DNA of 64,000 nucleotides, from contig OY970284.1 in assembly GCA_963715895.1 (NCBI GenBank), positions 4,771,892 through 4,835,891 on the forward strand. The letters are read 5' to 3'. Origin of the DNA: Thermoanaerobaculia bacterium (lineage in GTDB: Bacteria > Acidobacteriota > Thermoanaerobaculia > Gp7-AA8). The notes under the pieces are model-generated. The model was not told the DNA's origin. It did no database searches and worked only from the letters and a program-made list of their open reading frames with translations. Within the stretch, counting starts at the first letter, position 1. Every line of letters starts with the position of its first letter. Made by a program: the position numbers and the translations under genes. Below are positions 35,974 through 51,420 of the stretch, piece by piece.

Positions 35974-36316
35974 TGGCAACTACGTTCCCGATCGCGGGGA
36001 CCTCGTCGCGCTCACGTTTGATCCTCAGGCGGGCCATGAGCAGGCTGGCCGGCGTCCGGCGGTGGTCCTTTCGCCGGCGATCTACAACGCCAGGTCCGGT
36101 CTGGCGGTGTTCGCTCCTGTCACCAGCCAAGTCAAGGGCTATCCGTTCGAGGTGCTGATTCCGCCGGGCCTCGCGGTTGGCGGTGTGGTGCTCGCGGATC
36201 AGTTGAAGAGCTTGGATTGGCGAGCGCGCAACGTGCACTACATTGCGTCGTTGCCACCCGAGGTGCTTTCTGCGGTCCTGCAGAAGACGGGGCTGCTCCT
36301 GTCAATCCGGAGTTGA
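35954..36316 (+). CDS. MazF/PemK-family endoribonuclease toxin
   Basis: YVPDRGDLVALTFDPQAGHEQAGRRPAVVLSPAIYN... canonical MazF N-terminus; overlaps antitoxin by 20 nt. Confidence 0.8.
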   Translation: MATKSGSGNYVPDRGDLVALTFDPQAGHEQAGRRPAVVLSPAIYNARSGLAVFAPVTSQVKGYPFEVLIPPGLAVGGVVLADQLKSLDWRARNVHYIASLPPEVLSAVLQKTGLLLSIRS

Positions 36317-36460
36317 TGGCGCAGGCGAGCTCTCATCTGCGTACATCTGCGTCATCTGCGGATGAAAGCTTTTCCGCAGATTGCGCCATGAAAACAGTCA
36401 CTTGGCGGACTGAACTCTGCCCCAATGACTCGGTGGTAACCTCTTCCCACCAGAAACGTC

Positions 36461-38839
36461 ATGACCTCCTTCGACCTGATCATCGTCGGTTCCGGGCCGG
36501 CGGGGCTTGCGGCGGCGTCCCACGCGCAGAGCAATGGGCTCTCCTACGCGCTGCTGGAGCGGACCGACCATCTGGCGGACACCATCGACGCCTACCAGGC
36601 CCGCAAGTACGTGATGGCCGAGCCGATGCTGATTCCGGCTCGGGGGGAGGTGCCGTTCCAGGCGGGGTCGCGCGAATCGATCCTGGCGGCGTGGGGTGGG
36701 CACGTCAAAGAGAAGAAGCTCAACGTCCTCTTCAACGCCGAGGTCAAATCCATCAAGAAAGATGCTGGGCGGTTTCAGGTCGCCACCGCGAAGGGCGACA
36801 AGTTCGACGCCGCCAACGTCATCCTCGGCATGGGGACGCAGGGAAATCCGCGCAAACTCGGCGTACCGGGCGAAGACCTTCCCCACGTCCGCTACCGGCT
36901 CGTCGATCCGGCGGAGCATCGCGACCAGGACCTCCTCGTGGTCGGTGCCGGCGACTCCGCGCTCGAAATCGCTATCGCCCTGGCTGCTGAAAACCGCGTC
37001 GGACTGATCGTCCGAGGGACGGAGATCACCCGCGCCAACGACGTCCTGATCAAGGAGGTGCTCAGCCGGCAGGCCACGGGACAGATGACCGTCTACTTCA
37101 GCGCCAGCGTGAAGCAGGTCTATCCCGGCTATGCCGACCTCACCGTGCGCGGTGACGTCACGCGCGTGGCGGCGGAGCTGATCTTCCTCAAGCTCGGGGC
37201 CGACGCGCCGCGCAAATTCTTCGAGTCGATCGGCATCACCTACAGCGGCAGCGGCAAAGACTCGCGTCCCATCCTCAGCCAGGTCCACGAGTCGAGCGTG
37301 CCCGGGCTCTTCCTCATCGGCGCCGCCAGCGGGCGCGATCTCATCAAGCTGGGGATGAATCAGGGCTACGAGGTGGTCGAGCATCTGATGGGACGCGAGG
37401 TCGAGCCGGCCGACGAGGCGGTGCTGAAAGAGCGCCTGCCGTTCTGGGAAGGGACGGTGCGCGAGCGCATCGCCTTCCTGCGCACGCGCGTGCCCCTGCT
37501 GGCCGCGGCGGACGAGCAGCAGCTCCGCGAGACCTTCCTCTCCGCGCGCGTCCGCGAGTATGCGGACGGCGAGATCATCATCCGGCAGAACGACTACACG
37601 AACGACTTCCTCATCATCGCCGCCGGCCGCGTCGAGCTGTGGAAGAAGCCGGAGAAGACAAACACCGAGATCAAGATCGTCGAGCTGACGGCCGGCAACT
37701 TCTTCGGAGAGATGAGCCTCATCTCCGGACGCCGCCGCACCGCCACGGCCCGCGCGGTCGGAGCGACCCGCTTGATCGAGATCCCCCGCAAGGCAATCCT
37801 CAAGCTCCTCGGCGCAGCGCCGAGGGCCAAGGCACTCGTCGATCAGGCCTTCCTGCTGCGCGCCTTCGGCGGCTACCTCTTCCCCGGCATCCCCGAGTCG
37901 CAGCTCGGCGAGCTGGTGGAGCTGGCGGTGGTCAACAGCCTGGCCAAGGATGCGGTGGTCTTCCAGGAGGACACTCCGGCGGATGCCTTCTATCTCATCC
38001 GCAACGGCATGGTGAAGATCTCCAAGAAGTCGGGCGAGAAAGAGGTGGTGCTGTCGTACCTCGTGGCCGGCAACTTCTTCGGCGAGGCGGCCCTTTTCTC
38101 CGACACCGACCGGACGGCCACGGTGACGACGATCTTCCCGTCCGATCTGATCAAGCTCTCCAAGCGCGACTTCAACAACTTCCTGGCCGCCCATCCCGAG
38201 CTGCGCGAGGCGCCGCTGCGCAAGCTCGAGGAGCGCCGCATCGCCTCGCTCATCGCCGACGCCACCCCCGGCTCGGGCAACATCCTCAACGATCTGATCC
38301 GCGAGGAAGTGGTGATGGGGACGCAGACGCTCATCATCGACGAGCACAAATGCATCCGCTGCGGGAACTGCATCGCCGGCTGCGAAGGGGTTCACCGGGA
38401 CGGACAGGCGCGCCTCTCTCTAACCGGGATCAAGTTCTACAACCTGCTGGCGCCGAATTCCTGCTGGCAGTGCGAGAACCCGATGTGCATGCTGGACTGC
38501 CCGCCCGACGCCATCGTGCGCGACCCGCGCGGCGAGGTGTACATCAAGAGCAATTGCATCGGCTGCGGCAACTGCGAGCGCAATTGTCCTTATGGCAACA
38601 TTTTCATGATCCATAAGGAGCCCAAGAAGACGATTTTCTCCTGGGTGGCCTCGCTGTTCGGCAAAGGCCATGAGAACGAGATCGAGCAGACCGTGGCGGT
38701 GAAGTGCGACCTCTGCCGCGAGATCTCCGGCGGGCCGGCGTGCGTGCGGAGTTGTCCAACGGGAGCGGCCATCCGGTTGACGCCGGAGGAGTATCGGTCG
38801 ACGTTGGAGGAGTTGGTGATTACGCGCGGGGAGAGGTAG
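36461..38839 (+). CDS. Multidomain redox protein: FAD/NAD(P)-binding oxidoreductase + 2x cyclic-nucleotide-binding + 4Fe-4S dicluster ferredoxin domains
   Basis: N-terminal dinucleotide-binding GxGxxG (IIVGSGPAGLAAA) and second NAD(P) site (LLVVGAGDSALEIA). Two CAP-family cNMP-binding domains (GEIIIRQND...NFFGEMSLISGRRRTATARA and KDAVVFQED...NFFGEAALFSDTDRTATV). C-terminal Cys clusters (CIRCGNCIAGCEG; CWQCENPMCMLDCPP; CIGCGNCERNCPYG; CDLCRE...CVRSCP). Confidence 0.85.
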   Translation: MTSFDLIIVGSGPAGLAAASHAQSNGLSYALLERTDHLADTIDAYQARKYVMAEPMLIPARGEVPFQAGSRESILAAWGGHVKEKKLNVLFNAEVKSIKKDAGRFQVATAKGDKFDAANVILGMGTQGNPRKLGVPGEDLPHVRYRLVDPAEHRDQDLLVVGAGDSALEIAIALAAENRVGLIVRGTEITRANDVLIKEVLSRQATGQMTVYFSASVKQVYPGYADLTVRGDVTRVAAELIFLKLGADAPRKFFESIGITYSGSGKDSRPILSQVHESSVPGLFLIGAASGRDLIKLGMNQGYEVVEHLMGREVEPADEAVLKERLPFWEGTVRERIAFLRTRVPLLAAADEQQLRETFLSARVREYADGEIIIRQNDYTNDFLIIAAGRVELWKKPEKTNTEIKIVELTAGNFFGEMSLISGRRRTATARAVGATRLIEIPRKAILKLLGAAPRAKALVDQAFLLRAFGGYLFPGIPESQLGELVELAVVNSLAKDAVVFQEDTPADAFYLIRNGMVKISKKSGEKEVVLSYLVAGNFFGEAALFSDTDRTATVTTIFPSDLIKLSKRDFNNFLAAHPELREAPLRKLEERRIASLIADATPGSGNILNDLIREEVVMGTQTLIIDEHKCIRCGNCIAGCEGVHRDGQARLSLTGIKFYNLLAPNSCWQCENPMCMLDCPPDAIVRDPRGEVYIKSNCIGCGNCERNCPYGNIFMIHKEPKKTIFSWVASLFGKGHENEIEQTVAVKCDLCREISGGPACVRSCPTGAAIRLTPEEYRSTLEELVITRGER

Positions 38840-38845
38840 GGATGC

Positions 38846-38943
38846 AATGTTGAATGTTGAATGTTCAATGTTGAATGTTGAATGGACGGGAGACGGTCGC
38901 CTCCATTCAACATTGAACATTCAACATTCAACATTCAACATTC
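38846..38943. repeat. AT-rich heptamer-repeat palindrome (about 33-bp stem)
   Basis: Left arm (GAATGTT)x5-like CAATGTTGAATGTTGAATGTTCAATGTTGAATGTTGAATGG, 16-nt spacer, right arm its reverse complement; in the gap between the multidomain redox gene and the next gene. Confidence 0.75.
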
Positions 38944-38962
38944 GCCTTTCTCAGAGGCGTAC

Positions 38963-39796
38963 ATGCCAATAGCACGAAGCGGCGTCCTCTGGCGCCGGAT
39001 CTTCTTTCTTCTGCTCCTCGCCTTCACCGCGACCTTCATCTGGTACAAGAACCACGAATATCCGCACGGCGGCTCGCGATGGGGGTTGTTTTACGGGATC
39101 GTCGGCTTTTTCCTCTGCTATCTCCTGGCGTTCTTTGGAATCCGCAAGCGCTGGTACCGCTCGACGTTCGGCACCCTCGAACAATGGATGCAATCACACA
39201 TTTACCTCGGCATCCTGGTGCTGGTCATCCTCATTTATCACACGGGCGGACGATTTAACGACAAGATCGCCGTTGCCACGTTGATTCTGGTGGCCATTGT
39301 GGTATCGAGCGGGGTGTTGGGCGCGATTCTCTATGTGACCGTGCCGCGATTGTTAACCGAGGTTGAATCGAACCTGACGGTGGACGAGATATCGGAGCAG
39401 CTCAATCAACTCGCCAAACAGATGGCCCGTATTGCGTCGGGACGGTCGGCGCCATTTCAACGCATTTACAGCCAATTGATCCGCGAAGGCGAGCCGGGAT
39501 GGCTGGCCGGCTGGCGTCTGCTCTTCGCGCGGATGCGACGCGGTCCCGCGCCTATGGCTGGAGAGTGGACCAACCTCCTCAGCCTGGTGCAGAAGGACGA
39601 ACAGGAAGAGCTTCGTCAGCTGCTGGTCGTATCGCGGCAGCGAAAAGAGCTGCTGATCCGACTCATTTACCAGCAGCGCTACAAGAACGTCCTGGAGTTC
39701 TGGCTCTACATTCACATCCCATTCACGATTCTGCTGTTGCTGTTCGCGATCATCCACGTCGTGGCGGTGTTTTACTACGGGAGGGTCGCGTGGTGA
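38963..39796 (+). CDS. Polytopic membrane protein with two H-x13-H helices (putative di-haem b-type cytochrome)
   Basis: ATG at 38963; 5-6 TM helices, two of which carry His pairs spaced 13 residues apart (HIYLGILVLVILIYH; HIPFTILLLLFAIIH), as in bis-haem ferric-reductase/cytochrome-b-type domains. Family not recognised. Confidence 0.5.
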   Translation: MPIARSGVLWRRIFFLLLLAFTATFIWYKNHEYPHGGSRWGLFYGIVGFFLCYLLAFFGIRKRWYRSTFGTLEQWMQSHIYLGILVLVILIYHTGGRFNDKIAVATLILVAIVVSSGVLGAILYVTVPRLLTEVESNLTVDEISEQLNQLAKQMARIASGRSAPFQRIYSQLIREGEPGWLAGWRLLFARMRRGPAPMAGEWTNLLSLVQKDEQEELRQLLVVSRQRKELLIRLIYQQRYKNVLEFWLYIHIPFTILLLLFAIIHVVAVFYYGRVAW

Positions 39797-39928
39797 GGGA
39801 CTCTCTACGATTCCGCCCTCTAAATCCATCCGTTCCATTCCCTCTCGACGGAAGGGCGTGGCAAGAAATTCAACTGCACCGTGAGATTTCTCATACTCTG
39901 ACTGGAATCGTCGGCACCCTGTTACACG

Positions 39929-40112
39929 TCGAGAGCCTTCTCCCCCGCGGTTTTTTGCGGGGGAGAAGGTGCCGACAGGCGGATGAGGGGGCGCTTGGCA
40001 GGATGAGTCGCTATTTCCAGAGGAGTAACAAGGCATGCTGCTCAGCGCCCCCCTCATCCGCCTTCGGCACCTTCTCCCCCCGCAAAAAACCGCGGGGGGA
40101 GAAGGCTCTCGA
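39929..40112. repeat. Large nested inverted repeat (about 66-bp arms, about 50-bp spacer) upstream of the FHA-cytochrome gene
   Basis: Left arm TCGAGAGCCTTCTCCCCCGCGGTTTTTTGCGGGGGAGAAGGTGCCGACAGGCGGATGAGGGGGCGC; right arm its near-perfect reverse complement. Each arm also contains an internal 13-bp-stem hairpin (CCTTCTCCCCCGC ... GCGGGGGAGAAGG). Confidence 0.75.
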
Positions 40113-40199
40113 TGAAAAAGCCTGGGTAGAGGCTCAACAGGACCACGAGAAAGGTAGGGGCCAGCTACACCGGGCCGAACACCCGCGGGTGGCCACCCC

Positions 40200-42431
40200 A
40201 TGAGTTTCGTCATCCAGCGCGCTTCGGGGCGCGGGCTGGCGCTGACGCAGGTGCGGCGCGATCTGCTCCGCATCGGGCGGGGGACGAATGCCGAGCTGCG
40301 CTCGGAGAATCCTGCCGTGGCCCTCGAGCATGCCGTCATCGAAGGCGACGCCAACGGCTTCACCGTCACCGACAAAGGGAGCATCACCGGCACGTACGTC
40401 AATCGCCGGCCGGTGGAGACGGCGCGGCTGGCCAGGGGCGACGTCATCGAGATCGGCGACCTGCGCATCGAGGTACAGGTTCTCGAGCCGGGCAAGCCGC
40501 TCTTCGTCCGCGTCAGCACGACGTCATCCGTGGCGGGGGTATTCGCCGGCGATGACGAGGAGATCGTCCAGGGCGCGGGAGCCCGCGGCGGCGCGGTCAA
40601 GGCGCGGAAGATCGACTACGCCGACGCCTTTCGTCTCAAGCGCGCCTGGCTGACCAAGCTCTCGCTCATCGCCATCCTTCTGATCGTCGCGTTCCTTGTT
40701 GTGGCCGAGGTCACCAAACCGGAGAAACAGAACGCGTTCATGCCGGGAGGGATCTCGTCGGCGCACGCGCGGGCGAAAGATCCCAGAACCGGCGAGTTGA
40801 TCGGCAACAACTGCCGCGCATGTCACAACCCGTGGCGCGGCGTTTCCGACACGAGCTGCACCGAATGTCACGGCAGACTGCCGCATGCGGAGAACCAGAT
40901 CGGCGCTCCGGCATGCGCCGACTGCCACTCCGAGCATCGCGGCTTCGCCAAACTGGCCGCGGCCGCGGACGCCACCTGCATCTCCTGCCACGGCGACATC
41001 GCCGCTCATGTCAAGGATCCGGCCGCCCTGGCGACGAAACCGAAAGAGATCCTCCACATCCTCTCCTTCGGCGGCCAACATCCCGACTTCACGCCGCGGA
41101 GCGATCCCGACACCCTTCTCTTCAACCACGCCCTCCACCTCAAGGCGGGTGGCGTGTTCAACGGAGAAGGACGCCGCGAAGAACTTCAGTGCACGCAATG
41201 CCACAAGCTCGTCGAGACGAAGGGGAAAGTCGATCCCGCTCCGATCAGCTTCAAGAGCCACTGCCAGCGCTGCCACAAACTGACGTTCGATCCGCGCTTC
41301 CCTAACGTCGAAGTGCCGCATGGAGGCGATCCCGCCGACGTCTACGGCTTCGTCCTGGCCACCTACGCCGGCAACCGCGACATCATCGGCAAGAGTCCGG
41401 AAGAGGTCCGGCGCATTCTGACGCTGCGGCCGCCGTCGACTCCCGACCAGGGAGCGGTGCTCAACGCCGAGCAGGTCGTCAAGGTCAAATGCAGCAAGTG
41501 CCACATCCTCCAGCGCTCCGGCACCCGTCTGGCCGCGAAGACGCCCGAGATCCCGGCGCGCTGGTTCCTGAAGGCGAAATTCACGCACACGCCGCACCGC
41601 ACCCTTTCGTGCGAGTCGTGTCACGAAAATGTCCGTCAGAGCACCAATACGTCAGACGTGCTGATGCCTGTGCGCAAAGATTGCACCGGATGCCACGGCG
41701 GGCAGTCGGCCAAAACATCCAGTAGCTGCGCGACCTGTCATGAGTATCATGAGCATTCGAAGGTCTTGTTGACGAAATTGGGGGCTTCCTCCGGGAAAGG
41801 AACGCCTCTTGCCCCGAAGGAACATGGAGGCGGATCCCGGATGATCGAGACGGTTCTTCTGTGGGCCATCGTCCTGTTACTGCTGGTGGTGCTCGTGCCG
41901 GCAGGGTTGGCGCTGGTCCAGCGTATCCGGGCCGGCGAGCTCGATCGCGCCGCGGGCGTGCGCGCCGCGGCCGCGCAGCAGGCGCCGACAGCGAAGATTC
42001 CGCCGCTGCAGGGTTCCGAGACGCCGTCGGCTCCGCCGCCCGCCGCGCCGGCGAAGGCGCCGGACATCACGAAGATGGCTCCCGTCCCCACCGCCCCGGC
42101 GGAAGGATCGACGGTGATGGTGCAGTGGTATGGCCTCCTGCAGTGCACCGGCGGCGCGCTGGAAGGACAGCGCTTCGTCATCGAAGAAGGCGGCCTCTAC
42201 ATCGGCCGCGATCCGGCCATGTCGCAGGTGGCCATCTCGGACAAACGCATCTCCAAACGGCACGTGCGGATCATTCCGCGTGATGGTAAGGTAATGGCCA
42301 TCGATCAGAACTCGACGAACGGTACGTTCCTCGGCAAGGCCGGCGGCGAGCGGATCACCGAGGTACAGCTCAAACGGGGAGACGTTCTCGTCCTGGCCGA
42401 CAACGCGGCCACGTTTGTGTACCAGATATAG
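40200..42431 (+). CDS. FHA - TM - decahaem c-type cytochrome - TM - FHA protein
   Basis: 743 aa. N-terminal FHA (LLRIGRGTNAELRS...GSITGTYVN...GDVIEIGDLRI), TM1 (LSLIAILLIVAFLVVAEV), ten CxxCH motifs (CRACH, CTECH, CADCH, CISCH, CTQCH, CQRCH, CSKCH, CESCH, CTGCH, CATCH), TM2 (VLLWAIVLLLLVVLVPAGLALV), Pro/Ala linker, C-terminal FHA (LYIGRDPAMSQVAISDKRISKRHVRI...STNGTFL...GDVLVLAD). Confidence 0.85.
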   Translation: MSFVIQRASGRGLALTQVRRDLLRIGRGTNAELRSENPAVALEHAVIEGDANGFTVTDKGSITGTYVNRRPVETARLARGDVIEIGDLRIEVQVLEPGKPLFVRVSTTSSVAGVFAGDDEEIVQGAGARGGAVKARKIDYADAFRLKRAWLTKLSLIAILLIVAFLVVAEVTKPEKQNAFMPGGISSAHARAKDPRTGELIGNNCRACHNPWRGVSDTSCTECHGRLPHAENQIGAPACADCHSEHRGFAKLAAAADATCISCHGDIAAHVKDPAALATKPKEILHILSFGGQHPDFTPRSDPDTLLFNHALHLKAGGVFNGEGRREELQCTQCHKLVETKGKVDPAPISFKSHCQRCHKLTFDPRFPNVEVPHGGDPADVYGFVLATYAGNRDIIGKSPEEVRRILTLRPPSTPDQGAVLNAEQVVKVKCSKCHILQRSGTRLAAKTPEIPARWFLKAKFTHTPHRTLSCESCHENVRQSTNTSDVLMPVRKDCTGCHGGQSAKTSSSCATCHEYHEHSKVLLTKLGASSGKGTPLAPKEHGGGSRMIETVLLWAIVLLLLVVLVPAGLALVQRIRAGELDRAAGVRAAAAQQAPTAKIPPLQGSETPSAPPPAAPAKAPDITKMAPVPTAPAEGSTVMVQWYGLLQCTGGALEGQRFVIEEGGLYIGRDPAMSQVAISDKRISKRHVRIIPRDGKVMAIDQNSTNGTFLGKAGGERITEVQLKRGDVLVLADNAATFVYQI

Positions 42432-42454: not shown

Positions 42455-44278
42455 ATGCGCTCCGGTGTCACGTCGATCCTCATGATTCTCGTCGCCACGG
42501 CCTGCCTGGCGCAGGGCCGCACGATCGGACGGCGCGACAGGGCGTTGGCGACCACTCCCGATCCCCCTTCGTGCGCCATCCCTCTGAACGCGGCCCTTCC
42601 CGACGTCTGCACCGACGGCGCGATCGGCCTCGGGACGCCGGAGCCATTCAGCGCCATTTCGAAAGCCGAGGCGATTGAGATCGTCAAGGCGGCGGCGACG
42701 GCGCTTGCCGGCGACACCGCCACCATCGCCATCGTCGACCGTACCGGCCGTCCGGTGGCGTTGTTCCGGCAAGCCAACGCCAACCCTGCCAACGATGACG
42801 TCGCCCTCGGCGTGGCCCGCACCGCCGCCTTCTTCAGCAACAGCCAGGCGCCGCTTTCCTCGCGCACGGTGCGCACCATTTCTCAAGTGCACTTCCCACC
42901 AGGCGTGGTCAACACGCCGGTCGGCGCTCTGTACGGGATCGAACAGTCGAACCGCGGATGCGATGTAAACGTGCTGTGGAACACGAATCAGTGCGTTCCG
43001 CGAGCGAAGTCGATCGGACAGTTCGCCGCCTTCACCGGCGCGCCGAAGCCCTGCCCGATCACTGATCGCTCCGGCTGCGGCCCCGGTCTCATCACCGGGA
43101 AAATCCTGCCGGACGATGCGCCGTATCCGCAGGAAGTCGATACCCGTCCCGTCAACGCCGGCGGCATCCCGCTCTACCGCGTTCTCGACACCAGTGCCGT
43201 CAAGCAGGGGATCGCCCGCACCGGAAAGCTGCTCGGCGCGATCGGCGTCACCGGCATCCCCGGCGATCCACAGCTCGCCGAATTCGCCGCCGTTACCGGC
43301 GCCTTTGGTCCGCTCAACGCCGGCGTGGCGCCGATCATCCCGCTGCCGAACTATCCGCTGCCGCAGCCGCAGAACGTCTTCATCGACGGAATCCGCCTGC
43401 CGTTCATCGGGCCGGATCAACAGCTGAAGTTCAATGCAGACGGACTGCCGATCGGTCTCCAGCAACTGCCCGGCACCTCGCCAGGTTCAGCCGCGGGATT
43501 TACCGCGGGCACCTTCGTCTACGGACCCTTTAACGGCGGCTGCCCGCCGAACGGCTATCTCGTCGGTCCCAACGCCAGCGTGCTGCCGGGCGGGCTGACG
43601 GCATCGGCGGTCGACGCCATCGTGCAGCGCGCCGTCGCGGCGGCCAGGCGCACCCGCGCTCAGGTGCGCCTCCCACTCAACAGCTACACCCGCATGATCA
43701 TCTCCGTAGCCGACACCGACGGAACGATCCTGGCGCACTACCGGATGCCCGACTCCCTCTTCGACGCCGTCGACGTCGTCCTGGCGAAAGCGCGCAACGT
43801 CGCCTACGTCAACGGCAGCGATCCGAACGTCCGCAACGATCTTCCCGGCATTCCCGCCGGCTATTGGGTAACCGGGCGCACGATCGGTTTCGGTGCGCAG
43901 CCGCTCTATCCGCCGGGCATCGATTCGCAGGCATTCGATGTCGGTCCCGGGCCGTGGTACTCCACTCTCTTTCTGCCAAACATCGCCAAGCCGTGCAGCC
44001 AGGGATCGCAGGCGCCGAACGCCAACCAGAACGGCGTCACATTCTTCGGCGGATCCACGCCGCTCGTCGACAACGGCAAACTCGTCGGTGGTCTCGGCGT
44101 CAGCGGCGACGGTATCGAGCAGGACGACTATGTCACCTACCTCGGCGCGGGCCCTCTCCTTCCGCCGACCGACAAATGGGCCGATCAGCTCAATGTCAAC
44201 GGCGCCCGTCTGCCGATGTTCAAGTTCCCCCGGAGCCCCGAAGGAGTCACGGAGTGCGGGGGGAAGCCGTGTTCGTAG
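42455..44278 (+). CDS. Secreted tandem GlcG/HbpS-like (DUF336) haem-binding protein
   Basis: Signal peptide; two DUF336-like modules (SKAEAIEIVKAAATALAGDTATIAIVDRTGRPVALFRQ... and SAVDAIVQRAVAAARRTRAQ...MIISVADTDGTILAHY...GGSTPLVDNGKLVGGLGVSGDGIEQDD). Confidence 0.7.
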   Translation: MRSGVTSILMILVATACLAQGRTIGRRDRALATTPDPPSCAIPLNAALPDVCTDGAIGLGTPEPFSAISKAEAIEIVKAAATALAGDTATIAIVDRTGRPVALFRQANANPANDDVALGVARTAAFFSNSQAPLSSRTVRTISQVHFPPGVVNTPVGALYGIEQSNRGCDVNVLWNTNQCVPRAKSIGQFAAFTGAPKPCPITDRSGCGPGLITGKILPDDAPYPQEVDTRPVNAGGIPLYRVLDTSAVKQGIARTGKLLGAIGVTGIPGDPQLAEFAAVTGAFGPLNAGVAPIIPLPNYPLPQPQNVFIDGIRLPFIGPDQQLKFNADGLPIGLQQLPGTSPGSAAGFTAGTFVYGPFNGGCPPNGYLVGPNASVLPGGLTASAVDAIVQRAVAAARRTRAQVRLPLNSYTRMIISVADTDGTILAHYRMPDSLFDAVDVVLAKARNVAYVNGSDPNVRNDLPGIPAGYWVTGRTIGFGAQPLYPPGIDSQAFDVGPGPWYSTLFLPNIAKPCSQGSQAPNANQNGVTFFGGSTPLVDNGKLVGGLGVSGDGIEQDDYVTYLGAGPLLPPTDKWADQLNVNGARLPMFKFPRSPEGVTECGGKPCS

Positions 44279-44466: not shown

Positions 44467-46454
44467 TTGGCTTCGCTCGTCTTTCTCATCCTCCTGTTCG
44501 CAACCTCGGCATTCGCGCAACCCGCAACCGCGCCCATCACCATCAACGACGACCAGCCCGTTTACGCCGAGGGTGTGCCGTTCCTGCTCACGGGAACATC
44601 GCTGCCCGGCGCTATCGTCACCATCGCCATCGAGAAATCGGGCAACGGCCAGACCACAGCCGATGCTTCGGGATATTGGACATTGATCTGGACACCGCCG
44701 GTAAAAACCGGCACGTGGACCATCACCGCCAGCTCGGGGGGCGTGACGGCGACGCAGCTTCTGCGCGTACAGATTCAGGGCAACGTACAGCGGCAGCCGA
44801 TCGTCGAGCCGGTCGTGCGCTACGGGACGCCGGAGATTCCGCATCCCGAGGCGTATCAGGAGATGACGGATCGGTGGCGCATCACGCCGCCGCCGTACGA
44901 GCTGACCGAGAAATCGAAAGGCCGCCCCATCGGCGACAAAGGCGCCTCGATCGATCCGTACAACCAGAACCTGATCAAAGGCGACCTGCCGATCTTCGGG
45001 AAGGACTGGTTCCTCGACTTCACCGGCATCAGCGACACCCTCGCCGAGTCGCGCACGCTGCCGACGCCGTCGGGCGTCAGCGCCGTCAAGCCGACCTCGA
45101 TCACCGTCTTCGGCAAAGACAACCAGAACCTCTTCAACGAGAACCTGATCGCCTCCTTCGACCTCTTCCAGGGCGACACCGCCTTCAAGCCCATCACGCA
45201 GCGCTTCAAGATCACGCTGATCGAAAACATCAACTACGTACACCTGCGCGAGAACGCTCTCGTCAAGCCTGACGTCCGCCGCGGAACGTCGCGCACCGAT
45301 GGGTATCTCTCGCTGCAGGAGATCTTCTACGAGCGAAAGATCCGCGATGTCTCGCCGAACTACGACTTCATGTCATTCCGCGTCGGATCGCAGCCCTTCA
45401 ACAGCGACTTCCGCGGGTTCATCTTCAACGACACGAACCTTGGCGCCCGCCTTTTCGGCAACTTCGCGTCCAATCGCTATCAATACAACGTCGCCGTGTT
45501 CGACCGGCTGGAAAAAGACACCAACTCCGGCCTCAACACAATGGAGCTCCGCGATCAGCAGGTCGGCATCGCCAATATCTACCTGCAGGACTTCCTCGTC
45601 CGCGGCTACACCCAGGAGTTCAGCGTCCACTATCTACGCGACGGCGCCACCTTTCACTACGACCGCAACGGCATCCTGGTGCGCCCTGCGCCGGTTGGGG
45701 TCTTCACGCCGCACGAGATCCGCGCCACGTACATCGGCGAGGCGGGCCTGGGACACATCGGCCGCTTCAACGTCGACCACGCCATCTACTACGTCTTCGG
45801 CACCGACGAGTTGAATCCGATCGCCGGCCCCGATCCGAATCTAAAGAACGGGAACGCCGTGAAGATCGGAGCCGGCAGCGCGGCCCTCGAGGTCTCCTAC
45901 GACCACGATTGGTATCGGCCGCGGCTGGCCCTTTTCTACGCCTCGGGCGACCGCAATCCGCGCGACCGCAACGCCCGCGGCTTCGACTCCATCTTCGACA
46001 GTCCTAATTTCGCCGGCGGCGGTTTCTCTTCTTCAACCGCCTCGGCATCCGCCTTCCGACGACCGGCGTCGCGCTCGTCGAGCGCGGCTCGCTCCTGACC
46101 AGCCTGCGCAGCTCGAAGGATGAAGGGCAGCCGAACTACGTCAATCCCGGCGTGCAGATCGCCAGCACGGGAATCGATGTCAACGTCACGCCGCGGCTGA
46201 CGGCAATCTTCACCGGCAACTACATCCGCTTCGACGCCGTCGAGTCGGTCGAGGCCATCCTCTTCCAGGGCAACATCCACAAGACGCTCGGCACCGATCT
46301 CTCCGCCGGCCTTCGCTACCGGCCGCTCCTCAACCAGAACATCGTCATCGTCGGCGGCACCGCCGTCCTCCTCCCCGGCCGAGGATTCAAAGACATCTAT
46401 GAAAAAGACCGGCCGCTCTACCACGTCTTCACGAACGTAATCCTGACCTTCTGA
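44467..46454 (+). pseudogene. Outer-membrane beta-barrel (porin-like) protein, interrupted by a -1 frameshift at about 46021-46025
   Basis: TTG start; signal peptide (ASLVFLILLFATSAFAQP); alternating-hydrophobic beta-strand composition; C-terminus ...HVFTNVILTF ends in Phe (OMP sorting signature). The reading frame switches at GGCGGCGGTTTCTC (3-T run): frame 1 ends at 46098, frame 0 continues as FLFFNRLGIRLP... to 46454. This may be a sequencing error rather than a true pseudogene. Confidence 0.6.
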
Positions 46455-49400
46455 TGAAACGGATAACGATCGCTCTCGCCGCAGTGCTCATCGTCACGCT
46501 GGCCGTGATCAGAATCCGCGCGCAGACATCCCCCGACCTCCCGCCGCTGATGCGCCAGACACAGGCCGAGGCCGATGCGAAGAGTGCCGGATGCCTCTCG
46601 TGTCATAACGGGATCGAACCGATGCACGCCTCGGCGGCGGTGAAGCTGGCCTGCACCGACTGCCACGGCGGCGACGGTTCGGCGCGGACGAAAGAGGCCG
46701 CGCATGTCAAGCCGCTCCATCCCGAGATCTGGAAGACCTCGGCCAATCCGCAGCGCAGCTACACCGCCCTTCTGAAAGAGACGCCGGAGTTCGTGAAGTT
46801 CGTCAATCCAGGCGACCTTCGCGTCTCGCAGGAGACCTGCGGCGGCTGCCATCAGCGCCAGGTCAACGCTGTACCGCGCAGCACCATGACGACGTCCGCC
46901 GTCTTCTGGGCCGCCGTCAGCTACGCCAACGGTCTCGTCAGCCGCAAGCAGGGACTCCTCGGCGAGAGCTACAACCGCGCCGGCAACGCCACGTCCATCA
47001 AACCGGCAACGCCGCCGACACCCGATCAGATCGCCAAAGGCGCGCTGCCGATCCTCGTCCCACTGCCGCGCTGGGAGGTCTTTCAGCCGGCCGAGTACTT
47101 CCGCGCTTTCGAGCGAGGCGGCATCTCGGGAAGCAGCTCCTTCCCGGATATCGGCAATCCCAGCCCCGAGGGGGAAGCGGGTAAGCCTGACATCCGCCTC
47201 GGCAACCGCGGACGCGGTACCGGCCTGCGCATCTCGCCCGCGCTCATCAATCTCAACAAGACGCGGCTCAACGATCCCCATCTCTCGTTCCTCGGCACGA
47301 ACGATCATCCAGGCGACTACCGCTCCTCCGGATGCACGGGATGCCACGTCGTCTACGCCAACGATCGCGATCCATTGCATTCCTCTAGCTACGCTCAGTA
47401 CGGCAACACCGGCCTCTCCATCACCGGCGACAAATCGATCCCGAAGAATGAGCAGGGACACCCGCTACGCCACCAGTTCACGCGCGCCGTACCAACGAGC
47501 CAGTGCATGACGTGTCACATGCATCAGCCGAACTCCTTCGTGAACACGTATCTCGGCTACACGATGTGGGACTACGAGTCAGACGCCGAGCTGCTCTGGC
47601 CGAAGAAACAGAAGTATCCGACCGAGGCCGAGAAGCGCGCCTCGCTCGACGCAAATCCAGAAGGCGCTGCGCCGAGGGGATTGTGGAGCGATGAGAAGTT
47701 CCTCGAAAACGTCTCCGGCCTCAATTCGCAGGCGAAGAACACCCAGTTCGCCGACTACCACGGGCACGGCTGGAACTTCATGGCCGTCTACAAACGCGAC
47801 CACAAAGGCAACCTGCTCGACGCCGACGGCAGAATCGTTTCGTTCGATGATCCCGCCAAGTTCAGCAAAGCCGTTCATCTGCAGGACATCCACCTCGAGA
47901 AAGGGATGCACTGCGCCGACTGCCACTTCTCGCAGGACGAGCACGGCAACGGCCAGATCTACGCCGAGTACGGCAACAACATCGAGATCGAATGCCAGGA
48001 CTGCCACGGCAACGTCGACGCCTACACCAACCTGCGCACCTCCGGCCCCGCCGCGCCGCCGGGAGGGACCGATCTTCGGCTCGGAACCACACCGTTCGGT
48101 CAACGCCGCTTCATCTGGGTCAACGGCAGGCTGTATCAGAGGTCGATGCTGAACCCCGGCATGCAGTGGGAAGTCATCCAGGTCAAAGACAGCATCACGC
48201 CCGGTAACGCGCATTACAACGAGCGCTCCGCGTATGCGAAGACGATCCAGCGCGACGGTACGACCTGGGGAACGTCATCCAGCGCGAATTTCGCCCACGC
48301 CGACGCCAGGATGACTTGCTATGCGTGCCACACCTCGTGGATGACCTCATGCTCCGGCTGCCATCTGCCGCAGGAGCAGAACGCCAAGACCGAGGTCCAT
48401 CACTACGAGGGGGGCGAGACGAGAAACTACGCCTCGTACAACCCCCAGGTCATCCGCACCGACGTCTTCATGCTTGGTGTCAACGGCACCACCAAAGGGC
48501 ATCGCCTAGCGCCCGTTCGGTCATCGTCCGCGCTCGTGATCAGCTCGACGAACGCATTGCGCGACCGCATCTACATCCAGCAGCCACCCATCTCCTCGCC
48601 CGGATATTCGAGCCAGGCCTTCAACGCCCACGTCCCGCACACCGTCCGCACCCGCGAAACGCAGGGGTGCGGAAGCTGCCACATCACCAAAGAGAACGAC
48701 AACAACGCCTGGCTCGCCCAGCTCCTGCTGCAAGGAACCAACTTCGTCAACTTCGTCGGCCGCTACGCCTACGTCGCGGAAGGAAAGGGCGGGTTCGAGG
48801 GCGTCTGCGTAACCGAGTGGGACGAGCCGCAGGCGGTCATCGGATCGTCGCTGCACAAGATCGTCTATCCCGACTACTACGCGAAGCACCAGGCCAACAA
48901 GCTGGAGCTGCAGACCGCGCACGAACATCACGGCGACTCGCGCTCACTGCAGATGCGCGGTGAGTTCATCTACAGCGCGAACGGCGAGGAAGGCTTCAGC
49001 GTCTACGACATCGCCAACATCGACAACAAAGACTTCTCCGAGCGCATCGTCTCCCAGCCGGTCTCCCCGCTAGGCCAGCGTACCTTCGTGAAGACGAAGT
49101 TCGCCTCGGCCGTGGCGCTGCCGACGACGATGCCGGTGGCCCCCACGCGCCAGACGCAGTTCATCAAGGAAAACGAAGAGCAGACGATTCACCCGCTGTA
49201 CAAATACGTCTACGTCGCCGACCGCGAAGAGGGGCTGATCCTCATCGACGTGACGACGCTGTCAGACGCCAATCCGTCGAACAACTTCCTCACGCGCGCC
49301 GTGACCTTCAATCCCGGCGGCGCGCTCAACGGTGCCCGATCGATCTACGTCGCCGGACGCTGGGTCTTCATCGGCGCAGCGGGTGGCTTGGTCATCGTCG

Positions 49401-50065
49401 ACGTCGACAAACCGCTCGAGCCGAGGATTGTCGCCACGATTCCTGAATTGAAGGATGCCACCGGCATCGGCGTGCAGTTCCGCTATGCCTTTGTCACCAC
49501 GCCGGAAGGATTGGCCAGCGTCGACATCACCGACCCGTCGCATCCGCGCGTGGCCGCGCGCCTGGCCGTTCCCGACGCCAGAAGCGTCTATGTCGCTCGC
49601 ACCTACGCCTACATCGGCGGAGGCGCCCGCGGGATGGTCATCGTCGACGTCGAGCACCCGGAGAAGCCGGCAATCCTCCCGTGGAGCGACGAGCTCCCGC
49701 ATGACGCCAACGACGTGAAAGTGGCCTCGACCAACGCATCGACCTTCGCGTACGTCGCCGACGGCAAGTACGGTCTCAAGGTCTACCAGTTCCTCTCCCC
49801 CGAATGGACGCCCGGATACGCCGGCTTCAGCCCGCGTCCCGAACCGCGCCTCGTCGCCACCCGCCGCACGCACGGCCCGGCGCTGGCGGTCTCGAAGGGC
49901 CTCGACCGCGACCGCGCCGTCGACGAAGGCGGCAATCAGGTTTCGATCTTCAACCGCATCGGCGCGCGCCCGATGACGCTCCCCGAGATGCAGCGGCTCT
50001 ACCTCCGCGACGGATCGCTCTACACCGTCAGCGAGACGCCGACTACGAAGCCGGTCACGAGGTGA
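46454..50065 (+). CDS. Secreted multihaem (about 10 CxxCH) c-type cytochrome fused to C-terminal LVIVD-repeat beta-propeller
   Basis: ATG overlaps OMP stop (ATGA); signal peptide. CxxCH motifs: CLSCH, CTDCH, CGGCH, CTGCH, CMTCH, CADCH, CQDCH, CYACH, CSGCH, CGSCH. C-terminal about 350 aa contain LVIVD-type repeats (LILIDVT, LVIVDVD, MVIVDVE, YAYIGGG). Confidence 0.85.
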   Translation: MKRITIALAAVLIVTLAVIRIRAQTSPDLPPLMRQTQAEADAKSAGCLSCHNGIEPMHASAAVKLACTDCHGGDGSARTKEAAHVKPLHPEIWKTSANPQRSYTALLKETPEFVKFVNPGDLRVSQETCGGCHQRQVNAVPRSTMTTSAVFWAAVSYANGLVSRKQGLLGESYNRAGNATSIKPATPPTPDQIAKGALPILVPLPRWEVFQPAEYFRAFERGGISGSSSFPDIGNPSPEGEAGKPDIRLGNRGRGTGLRISPALINLNKTRLNDPHLSFLGTNDHPGDYRSSGCTGCHVVYANDRDPLHSSSYAQYGNTGLSITGDKSIPKNEQGHPLRHQFTRAVPTSQCMTCHMHQPNSFVNTYLGYTMWDYESDAELLWPKKQKYPTEAEKRASLDANPEGAAPRGLWSDEKFLENVSGLNSQAKNTQFADYHGHGWNFMAVYKRDHKGNLLDADGRIVSFDDPAKFSKAVHLQDIHLEKGMHCADCHFSQDEHGNGQIYAEYGNNIEIECQDCHGNVDAYTNLRTSGPAAPPGGTDLRLGTTPFGQRRFIWVNGRLYQRSMLNPGMQWEVIQVKDSITPGNAHYNERSAYAKTIQRDGTTWGTSSSANFAHADARMTCYACHTSWMTSCSGCHLPQEQNAKTEVHHYEGGETRNYASYNPQVIRTDVFMLGVNGTTKGHRLAPVRSSSALVISSTNALRDRIYIQQPPISSPGYSSQAFNAHVPHTVRTRETQGCGSCHITKENDNNAWLAQLLLQGTNFVNFVGRYAYVAEGKGGFEGVCVTEWDEPQAVIGSSLHKIVYPDYYAKHQANKLELQTAHEHHGDSRSLQMRGEFIYSANGEEGFSVYDIANIDNKDFSERIVSQPVSPLGQRTFVKTKFASAVALPTTMPVAPTRQTQFIKENEEQTIHPLYKYVYVADREEGLILIDVTTLSDANPSNNFLTRAVTFNPGGALNGARSIYVAGRWVFIGAAGGLVIVDVDKPLEPRIVATIPELKDATGIGVQFRYAFVTTPEGLASVDITDPSHPRVAARLAVPDARSVYVARTYAYIGGGARGMVIVDVEHPEKPAILPWSDELPHDANDVKVASTNASTFAYVADGKYGLKVYQFLSPEWTPGYAGFSPRPEPRLVATRRTHGPALAVSKGLDRDRAVDEGGNQVSIFNRIGARPMTLPEMQRLYLRDGSLYTVSETPTTKPVTR

Positions 50066-51420
50066 TGACGATGAAGCGAATGAAACGAATGATGATTCTC
50101 TTCGTGCTGATGACCGCGGCCGCTGCGATCGCGCAGCAACCGAGCAACCCGGCAACCCAGCAACCTCAAACCCCAGCCCCGATGCAACCACCGTCTGTTC
50201 CCAACCACTACGACGGCGTCGCCTCCTGCGCCAACTCCGGCTGCCACGGCTCGACCCAGCCGCTCAACGCCGCGCACGTCCTGCAGAACGAGTACTACAC
50301 GTGGCTGAGCAAAGATCGCCACGCGCAGGCCTACAACGTCCTCTTCAGCGACCGCTCGGCGCGCGTCGCGCGCAACATGCGCCTCAAAGGAAAGGCTTAT
50401 CAGGAGACCGTCTGCCTCGATTGTCACACTACGAACGTCCCCGCGCGCCTGGTCTCCGGCAAAATGGACGTCGAAGACGGCGTCCAGTGCGAAGCCTGCC
50501 ATGGCCCCGCCAGCGGCTGGCGCGCCGAGCACACGCAGGCCGGCTGGACGCACGAGCAGTCGGTGGCGCGCGGGATGACCGACCTCCGAAACCTCCCCGT
50601 CCGTGCCTCGGGCTGCCTCTCCTGTCACCTCGGCAACGACAAGAAGGAAGTCGATCACGAGCTGATCGCCTCCGGCCATCCCATCCTCGCCTTCGAGCTC
50701 GACAACTACACCGAGACGATGCCGCCCCACTGGCGCCGAGACAAAGACGCCGTGGCCGCCGACACCCACGGCGCGCGTGCCTTCGCCGTCGGCCAGGCCG
50801 CCGCATTCAGCCAATCGCTCGACAATCTGGCCCGCCACGCCCGCGGCGATAAGTGGCCGGAGTTCTCCGACATGAGCTGCATCAACTGCCACCATTCGCT
50901 CGAGGGCAGCGGATGGCGTCAGGAGCGCGGCTGGCCCGGCCGGGCCGGCCTCCCTGCGTGGAGCCCGCAGCATTGGGCCGTCCTCCGTCTCCTGGTCGGG
51001 CGCGCCAATCCTTCCGCACGCGCGACGCTCGACAACGCCGTGGAGATCCTCGCCGTACGCGTCTCACGGATGAACGACTCCAACGGCGTTCTGCAGGCAG
51101 CCAACGAAGCCCGCCGCACCATCGACAGCGTCACGCCGCAGATCGCCGCCCTGAGCTGGCGCGATGACGATGTCCGCTCCATGATGCGCACTATCGCCGG
51201 CGACACCGACTTCCTCCTCAATTCCGACGTCCACTCCGCCGAGCAGACCGCGCTGGCGCTGCAGAGCCTTGCCTCCGCCCTCACCCGAAGCAACCCGCGC
51301 CTGCTCAAGAGCCCGATGACCGAAGCGATCGATGCTCTCTTCGAAGAGGTCAAGAGCCGCGAACGCTACGAACCGTCACGATTCGTGCAGAAGCTGGCGG
51401 CGGTGCGGGCGGCGTTGTAG
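50065..51420 (+). CDS. Secreted pentahaem c-type cytochrome (4x CxxCH + 1x CX4CH)
   Basis: ATG overlapping upstream stop (TGATGA); signal peptide (MKRMMILFVLMTAAAAIAQQ); haem motifs CANSGCH (CX4CH), CLDCH, CEACH, CLSCH, CINCH. Confidence 0.8.
   Translation: MTMKRMKRMMILFVLMTAAAAIAQQPSNPATQQPQTPAPMQPPSVPNHYDGVASCANSGCHGSTQPLNAAHVLQNEYYTWLSKDRHAQAYNVLFSDRSARVARNMRLKGKAYQETVCLDCHTTNVPARLVSGKMDVEDGVQCEACHGPASGWRAEHTQAGWTHEQSVARGMTDLRNLPVRASGCLSCHLGNDKKEVDHELIASGHPILAFELDNYTETMPPHWRRDKDAVAADTHGARAFAVGQAAAFSQSLDNLARHARGDKWPEFSDMSCINCHHSLEGSGWRQERGWPGRAGLPAWSPQHWAVLRLLVGRANPSARATLDNAVEILAVRVSRMNDSNGVLQAANEARRTIDSVTPQIAALSWRDDDVRSMMRTIAGDTDFLLNSDVHSAEQTALALQSLASALTRSNPRLLKSPMTEAIDALFEEVKSRERYEPSRFVQKLAAVRAAL

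Follow-up and report, generated by a model that had tools for sequence, protein, structure and literature searches.

A gene in the window, the whole 64,000-nucleotide stretch of Thermoanaerobaculia DNA analyzed here, joins a flavin domain, two cyclic-nucleotide-binding (CNB) domains and a four-cluster iron-sulfur module in one 792-aa polypeptide, immediately upstream of a conserved multihaem-cytochrome locus. On sequence grounds we consider it an even bet (probability of roughly 0.5) that the product supplies a conserved multihaem-cytochrome conduit with electrons, as a soluble, cytoplasmic input subunit under the control of cAMP or cGMP. The domain anatomy, the cofactor motifs and their conservation, the synteny, a fusion of flavin and membrane domains and a replacement of the flavin module were all computed here.

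The gene is a single ATG-to-stop ORF with a GC3 of 0.89, as in genuine genes of the same window, and hydropathy analysis of its product shows no real TM segment. Pfam assigned Pyr_redox_3, Pyr_redox_2, two cNMP_binding stretches and Fer4 models, bearing out the domain order (flavin, two CNB domains, Fe-S C-terminus) given in an initial annotation of this DNA; this three-module architecture far exceeds chance. The AF2 model (pLDDT 84.9, pTM 0.78) was matched by solved structures in single modules and never as a whole. No HTH family was found in a Pfam scan at E<=0.1, CNB-B is followed by the Fe-S module, and a CRP-like NCBIfam model matched the CNB part only (74 bits vs. a cut-off of 266). With no HTH after its CNB domains, the protein is not a CRP-type regulator, in agreement with the initial annotation. 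The gene and its parts are as follows.

36461..38839, + strand: main gene, encoding the 792-aa FAD / tandem CNB / four-[4Fe-4S] protein, predicted to be soluble and cytoplasmic (ORF, Pfam and NCBIfam)
36461..37405, + strand: TrxR/YpdA-like FAD/NAD(P) domain, residues 1-315 (Pyr_redox_3, motifs and structural matches)
37463..37870, + strand: CNB domain A with a helical N-terminal linker, residues 335-470 (cNMP_binding at 365-450, Pfam)
about 37703-37756, + strand: CNB-A cassette FGEMSLISGRRRTATARA, residues 415-432 (motif)
37871..38260, + strand: CNB domain B, residues 471-600 (second cNMP_binding stretch; NCBIfam CRP-like match at 482-589)
about 38078-38131, + strand: CNB-B cassette FGEAALFSDTDRTATVTT, residues 540-557 (motif)
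38318..38785, + strand: HydN/HycB-type module with four [4Fe-4S] clusters, residues 620-775 (Cys groups, HydN and HycB3 matches)

In the flavin domain, Pyr_redox_3 matched residues 7-287 over its full profile (1-305/305, E 7.7e-37), and the dinucleotide-binding motifs GSGPAG at residue 10 (FAD) and GAGDSA at 162 (NAD(P)) are present, together with R185/R191. Residues G10, G12, G15, G162, G164, D165 and E169 are invariant in homologue alignments. The top Foldseek matches were the YpdA/Bdr structures 7a76 and 7a7b (TM-target 0.79-0.80), followed by 2zbw, 3ab1, 3lzw and 6gar, with TrxR-type ferredoxin-NADP+ reductases among the matches. Both motifs, the full profile and the TM-target values identify a TrxR-like fold with two dinucleotide-binding domains, which YpdA/Bdr and the TrxR-type ferredoxin-NADP+ reductases have in common with the domain described here. 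YpdA/Bdr enzymes carry a conserved active-site Cys14 in an N-terminal GGPCG motif. Here, residue 14, within the GSGPAG motif, is Ala in 120/120 close relatives, and residues 1-630 contain no Cys at all, so the domain is no disulfide reductase. Bacillithiol-disulfide reductase (YpdA/Bdr) was rejected on account of Ala14 and of the score of TIGR04018, the best NCBIfam model of the domain (139 bits vs. a cut-off of 339.9), and thioredoxin-disulfide reductase (TrxB) on the lack of a CxxC motif and a TIGR01292 score of 67 bits against a cut-off of 343. A further difference from YpdA/Bdr and the TrxR-type ferredoxin-NADP+ reductases is that here the Fe-S acceptor of the domain is part of the same polypeptide.

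All 16 Cys residues of the protein fall between residues 631 and 765, in the groups CxxCxxCxxxC (631-641), CxxCx4CxxxCP (668-680), CxxCxxCxxxCP (699-709) and CxxCx8CxxxCP (749-765), and none of the 16 varies across 31 full-length homologues, the most distant of which has 27% identity. Fer4 models cover residues 624-774. The NCBIfam model HydN (model positions 5-156/181) matches the same interval at 67 bits vs. a cut-off of 260, which is not an equivalog match; further NCBIfam matches were to DmsB, NrfC and TtrB, and HycB3 in the PDB (7qv7_A) matched residues 622-773 with an E of 1.6e-18. Sixteen Cys in four groups, in the pattern of HydN, HycB and DmsB, indicate four [4Fe-4S] clusters, and the two-cluster, ferredoxin-like C-terminus proposed in the initial annotation was therefore rejected.

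The genes downstream, with the interval that precedes them, are listed here.

38846..38942, + strand: intercistronic hairpin of (GAATGTT)n / (AACATTC)n heptamers, between the main gene and that of the membrane partner
38963..39796, + strand: 277-aa membrane partner with five TM helices, a probable dihaem cytochrome b (start set by homology; TM and His positions)
40200..42431, + strand: 743-aa decahaem cytochrome, ordered FHA, TM, ten CxxCH (periplasmic), TM, FHA (Pfam FHA twice and cytochrome c7/c3; two TM segments)
42455..44278, + strand: secreted HbpS/GlcG-like protein, true start maybe downstream of 42455 (PF03928, E 1.5e-23)
44494..46451, + strand: conserved "652-aa" secreted protein (tblastn of the L001 orthologue)
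46454..50065, + strand: 1203-aa cytochrome with ten haems and LVIVD repeats at its C-terminus (Pfam LVIVD, E 2.2e-20, plus cytochrome c3/c7; 10 CxxCH)
50065..51420, + strand: cytochrome c554-like protein of about 450 aa, with 4 CxxCH and one longer-spaced Cys motif (PF13435, E 4.3e-11)

The position immediately upstream of the cytochromes was thus confirmed. The proposed link to them is stronger than could be seen from the initial annotation, with a gene order that is kept across phyla; direct contact with the c-type cytochromes does not hold, as a probable dihaem cytochrome b is encoded in between. This 277-aa protein has His79/His93 in TM3 and His251/His265 in TM5, each pair with i,i+14 spacing, and thus the two His pairs on two TM helices of a dihaem cytochrome b. 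Three comparisons, of 14, 21 and 16 homologues, each show all four His as invariant, and the topology agrees with the positive-inside rule. All 13 orthologues examined match PF01292 (Prokaryotic cytochrome b561) weakly, below threshold (best E 9.6e-5). Searches of PDB sequences with the single protein and with a 13-sequence profile gave nothing meaningful, and the best Foldseek matches of the model (pLDDT 69), to the TM domains of SpNOX and STEAP2, were not significant (E about 0.7-1.6). Taken together, these sequence features point to a probable dihaem cytochrome b across the membrane.

Homologues of the 792-aa protein number 3109 at E<=1e-10; an exact look-up of the window protein itself across public assemblies returned no record. 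Full-length homologues (785-803 aa, up to 95% identity) come from Acidobacteriota/Thermoanaerobaculia metagenomes throughout. The family is spread over many phyla, among them soil Acidobacteriota, Nitrospira, Planctomycetota and marine Proteobacteria. In 13/15 full-length loci the membrane gene is the next one after the main gene and, where its start can be placed, begins 16-126 nt past it. Thermoanaerobaculia, Ca. Sulfotelmatobacter and Alpha-/Gammaproteobacteria share one gene order (flavo-Fe-S protein, then the 4-His membrane protein, the decahaem, the HbpS-like protein and the 652-aa protein), with protein identities of just 22-44%. A decahaem is encoded after the membrane gene in L049, L082 and L083 as well as in most full-length loci. 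Of 17 distant loci, 15 encode a 4-His membrane protein paired with an FAD homologue (of the Fer4-FAD type in the six that were scanned) beside ORFs with 7-40 CxxCH motifs.

Two rearrangements bear on how the parts work together. Two Planctomycetota loci, L031 and L032, each have a single ORF (831 and 701 aa, respectively) that unites a homologous flavin domain with the 4-His membrane domain, and the L031 fusion additionally carries Fer4. In L083 (Ca. Acidiferrales), NuoG-like Fe-S domains form one chain with the CNB/Fe-S module, and a NuoF-like NADH/FMN subunit is encoded ahead of it, while the 4-His protein, decahaem, HbpS-like protein and c554-like neighbor are retained. That a second, unrelated NADH-oxidizing module occupies this position speaks for the flavin end as the site of NAD(P)H input. 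We also confirmed split CNB/Fe-S homologues (35% identity) with a 4-His membrane homologue and a cytochrome encoded after them; such split versions, for example L082, have no flavoprotein gene adjacent, which weighs against the electron-input reading.

Further downstream, the 743-aa decahaem has syntenic homologues in 12 loci plus L083. The HbpS/GlcG-like protein is a conserved cluster member with syntenic homologues (41% identity to the L083 neighbor), and the c554-like protein is 40% identical to its L083 neighbor. The 652-aa protein, possibly an outer-membrane component, has orthologues of 38-44% identity in proteobacterial loci; its frame in the window is broken near 46026-46098, as the L001 orthologue maps to two frames by tblastn and reading through meets 4 stops. 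NCBIfam assigned none of six downstream proteins to a curated family at cut-off. A 190-aa "gene" between the membrane and cytochrome genes of L001 was rejected as a probable spurious ORF across intergenic repeats, given its repetitive translation and the lack of any counterpart in the window. The intercistronic hairpin has 46-nt arms that are 91% complementary (RNA fold -65 kcal/mol, z -11.7), is unique within the window and is conserved at the equivalent position of L001 and L002. No Rfam family was found in the whole window, a scan of positions 36100-40400 gave no sigma-70 promoter, and terminator-like sites occurred at chance level.

We infer an electron donor, a direction of flow, ligation of haem b, nucleotide binding and gating, and propose the following route. 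NAD(P)H would reduce the FAD of the cysteine-free TrxR/YpdA-like domain, and single electrons would then leave via the four-[4Fe-4S] wire of the HydN-like module. This module would dock at the cytoplasmic face of the five-TM partner, in which two stacked b haems may be held, the cytoplasmic one by His79/His251 and the periplasmic one by His93/His265. From the b haems, electrons would pass to the membrane-anchored decahaem, the presumed acceptor of the cytochrome b, and on to the outer cytochromes. It counts against the proposal that export of NAD(P)H electrons by this route would conserve no energy.

In its most specific form, the protein would belong to a quinone-independent, NADPH-oxidase-like exporter that passes electrons from NAD(P)H through the Fe-S clusters and b haems directly to the multihaem cytochromes and is switched by cAMP/cGMP, possibly also by phospho-threonine via the FHA domains of the decahaem. 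We advance this version tentatively, as one that has a real chance while being rather doubtful as a whole. NADPH oxidases and ferric-reductase-domain enzymes such as SpNOX follow the same logic, from cytoplasmic NAD(P)H to a flavin and two stacked b haems, and in L031 and L032, as in NADPH oxidases, a single polypeptide contains both the flavin and the haem domain. Unlike SpNOX, the flavin domain here is TrxR-like and not FNR-like, an Fe-S wire and CNB domains are inserted, the acceptor is probably cytochrome c rather than O2, and the fold match, at an E of about 0.7, is not significant.

The alternative that survives best, although we think it unlikely, is a regulated NAD(P)H:quinone oxidoreductase, working as NarHI or FdnHI in reverse, with the multihaem cytochromes drawing their electrons from the quinol pool. 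Quinone-linked enzymes such as formate dehydrogenase-N, nitrate reductase and hydrogenase use, as their module, the pairing of a four-cluster Fe-S protein with a dihaem b subunit. Cytochromes b of the superfamily of the 277-aa protein usually carry a quinone site, so electrons might reach quinone and not a c-type cytochrome directly. That pairing, the HydN, DmsB, NrfC and TtrB matches, and the weak match of every orthologue of the membrane partner to PF01292, which we take to be a family of quinone-reactive b subunits (formate dehydrogenase-N, nitrate reductase, hydrogenase), all favor a quinone route. FdnH-FdnI, NarH-NarI and HycB/HydN likewise place a four-cluster, 16-Cys wire beside a membrane protein with two bis-His haem sites. 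Unlike FdnH-FdnI, NarH-NarI and HycB, however, the locus here has no molybdopterin or hydrogenase catalytic subunit and a flavin feeds the wire; unlike FdnI and NarI, the membrane partner is very divergent, falls below all Pfam and NCBIfam thresholds and has its His on TM3 and TM5. We identified no motif for a quinone site, and the decahaem is membrane-anchored and encoded next to the membrane gene, which fits a fixed b-to-c complex. The fusions and the synteny do not separate the quinone route from the direct one.

Control by cyclic nucleotides is suggested by the CNB pair. The two cNMP_binding stretches have an overall E of 1.2e-40, their FGE...RTA phosphate-binding cassettes begin at residues 415 and 540, and FGEMSLISGRRRTA and FGEAALFSDTDRTA both contain the Gly-Glu and Arg-[Thr/Ser]-Ala of a canonical cassette. 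The best PDB sequence matches of residues 340-580 were PKG and PKA-R, which have tandem CNB-A/CNB-B domains with canonical cassettes, as here; they differ in that the regulated partner here would be a redox enzyme of the same chain and not a kinase. Among 120 sequences (the 792-aa protein and 119 close relatives), G416, E417, R426 and A428 of CNB-A and G541 and E542 of CNB-B are each conserved in 120/120, and R551 in 117/120; identity of close relatives is 84-85% in the CNB domains vs. 81% in the FAD domain. The initial annotation would have been undermined by degenerate cassettes, and both proved to be intact.

It is nevertheless conceivable, if rather improbable, that the CNB pair is a structural spacer, a dimerization scaffold or a site for another ligand and that the enzyme is constitutive. 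CNB-fold domains of CooA, NtcA and CprK bind haem, 2-oxoglutarate and chlorophenols, respectively, and the cassette Arg and Glu are missing in about a third of distant members: in distant full-length homologues, CNB-A retains G416 in 31/31, E417 in 30/31 and R426 in 20/31, and CNB-B retains E542 in 19/31 and R551 in 22/31. This partial loss means that nucleotide sensing may not be family-wide. Within the parts of the window that were covered, no cyclase was found by Pfam on 30 ORFs beyond the first 12 kb or by tblastn with a class III catalytic domain. On the other side stands the (near-)invariant Gly-Glu...Arg-Thr-Ala of both domains in the close relatives. A CHASE2 class III nucleotide cyclase adjoins the cluster in L083 and another lies about 4 kb upstream in L007, the only 2 loci with a nearby cyclase, and L082 encodes, immediately upstream, a GAF/HD-GYP protein that itself contains a cNMP-binding domain. 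Kannan et al. also place the family among CNB families with a canonical cassette (PMC2246266). Returning to the electron-input reading, the CNB pair, which lies in the chain between the flavin and the Fe-S wire, most likely binds cAMP or cGMP. Nucleotide binding would shift the Fe-S module with respect to either the flavin or the membrane partner, providing a post-translational on/off switch of electron flow.

A reversed, inward flow from an outside donor (Fe(II), Mn(II), reduced humics or nitrogen species) through the cytochromes, b haems, Fe-S clusters and flavin to NAD(P)+ or another acceptor is the least probable alternative: Fe-S/flavin wires are reversible in principle and homologues occur beyond metal reducers, in aerobes, nitrite oxidizers such as Nitrospira and Alpha-/Gammaproteobacteria, yet NAD(P)+ reduction from Fe(II)-type donors is uphill and inward electrons oppose the membrane potential, Pfam found no coupling-ion module in the cluster, and a flavin domain without Cys would allow no disulfide reduction. 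The possible nitrogen-cycling role mentioned in a preprint on the related ptd cluster (bioRxiv 10.1101/2023.11.21.568154) would accord with such a flow.

The 792-aa protein joins a known family, and its architecture itself is not new. Its domain order and cassette A (GEMSLISGRRRTATARA, 14/17 identical to the consensus GEMGLISGRRRGATVRA) place it in the CNB family "Bact_Pyrredox", family 13 of Kannan et al., catalogued in 2007 (Genome Biol 8:R264, PMC2246266). That catalogue covers the architecture only; the C-terminal Fe-S module, function and genomic context are absent from it. The ptdABCDEFG operon, a putative porin-cytochrome cluster of Alpha-/Gammaproteobacteria, Nitrospirales and Planctomycetes whose function is described as "completely unknown", encodes a cNMP-binding Fe-S protein (PtdE), a "ferric reductase-like" membrane protein (PtdF) and a decahaem (PtdG) (bioRxiv 10.1101/2023.11.21.568154). 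PtdE-PtdF-PtdG match the locus here in composition and gene order, a likeness drawn from their description and not from Ptd sequences. The split homologues described above repeat this triad. The two differ in that the ptd flavoprotein, PtdC, is flavohaemoprotein-like and a separate gene, whereas a TrxR-like FAD domain is fused N-terminally here; two Fe-S clusters are counted in the ptd preprint and four here; and, unlike in ptd, the decahaem carries two FHA domains. An HbpS-like gene is present here, and the other cytochromes differ in haem number.

The initial annotation had also allowed that the architecture might be widespread with a known role. Widespread it is (885 representative clusters at E<=1e-30, thousands of annotated homologues, the 2007 catalogue entry and the relation to PtdE), but no role has been assigned to it. 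Literature searches on multihaem/FHA cytochromes, Thermoanaerobaculia cytochromes and extracellular-electron-transfer oxidoreductases found no functional study of the family, and a preprint on peat cytochromes makes no mention of the 792-aa protein.

To our knowledge, the entry of cytoplasmic electrons into multihaem conduits has been described in a few model systems only, and there via the quinone pool. The 792-aa family suggests an entry that NAD(P)H would feed directly, and the proposal is directly testable because the protein is soluble and tractable for biochemistry. If it is correct, extracellular electron transfer would be under fast post-translational control, and bacterial cAMP/cGMP signaling would gain a new class of output. 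If the exporter reading also holds, the family would represent a new class of input module for respiration or extracellular electron transfer, as well as the first demonstrated case of a redox enzyme under the gating control of a cyclic mononucleotide.

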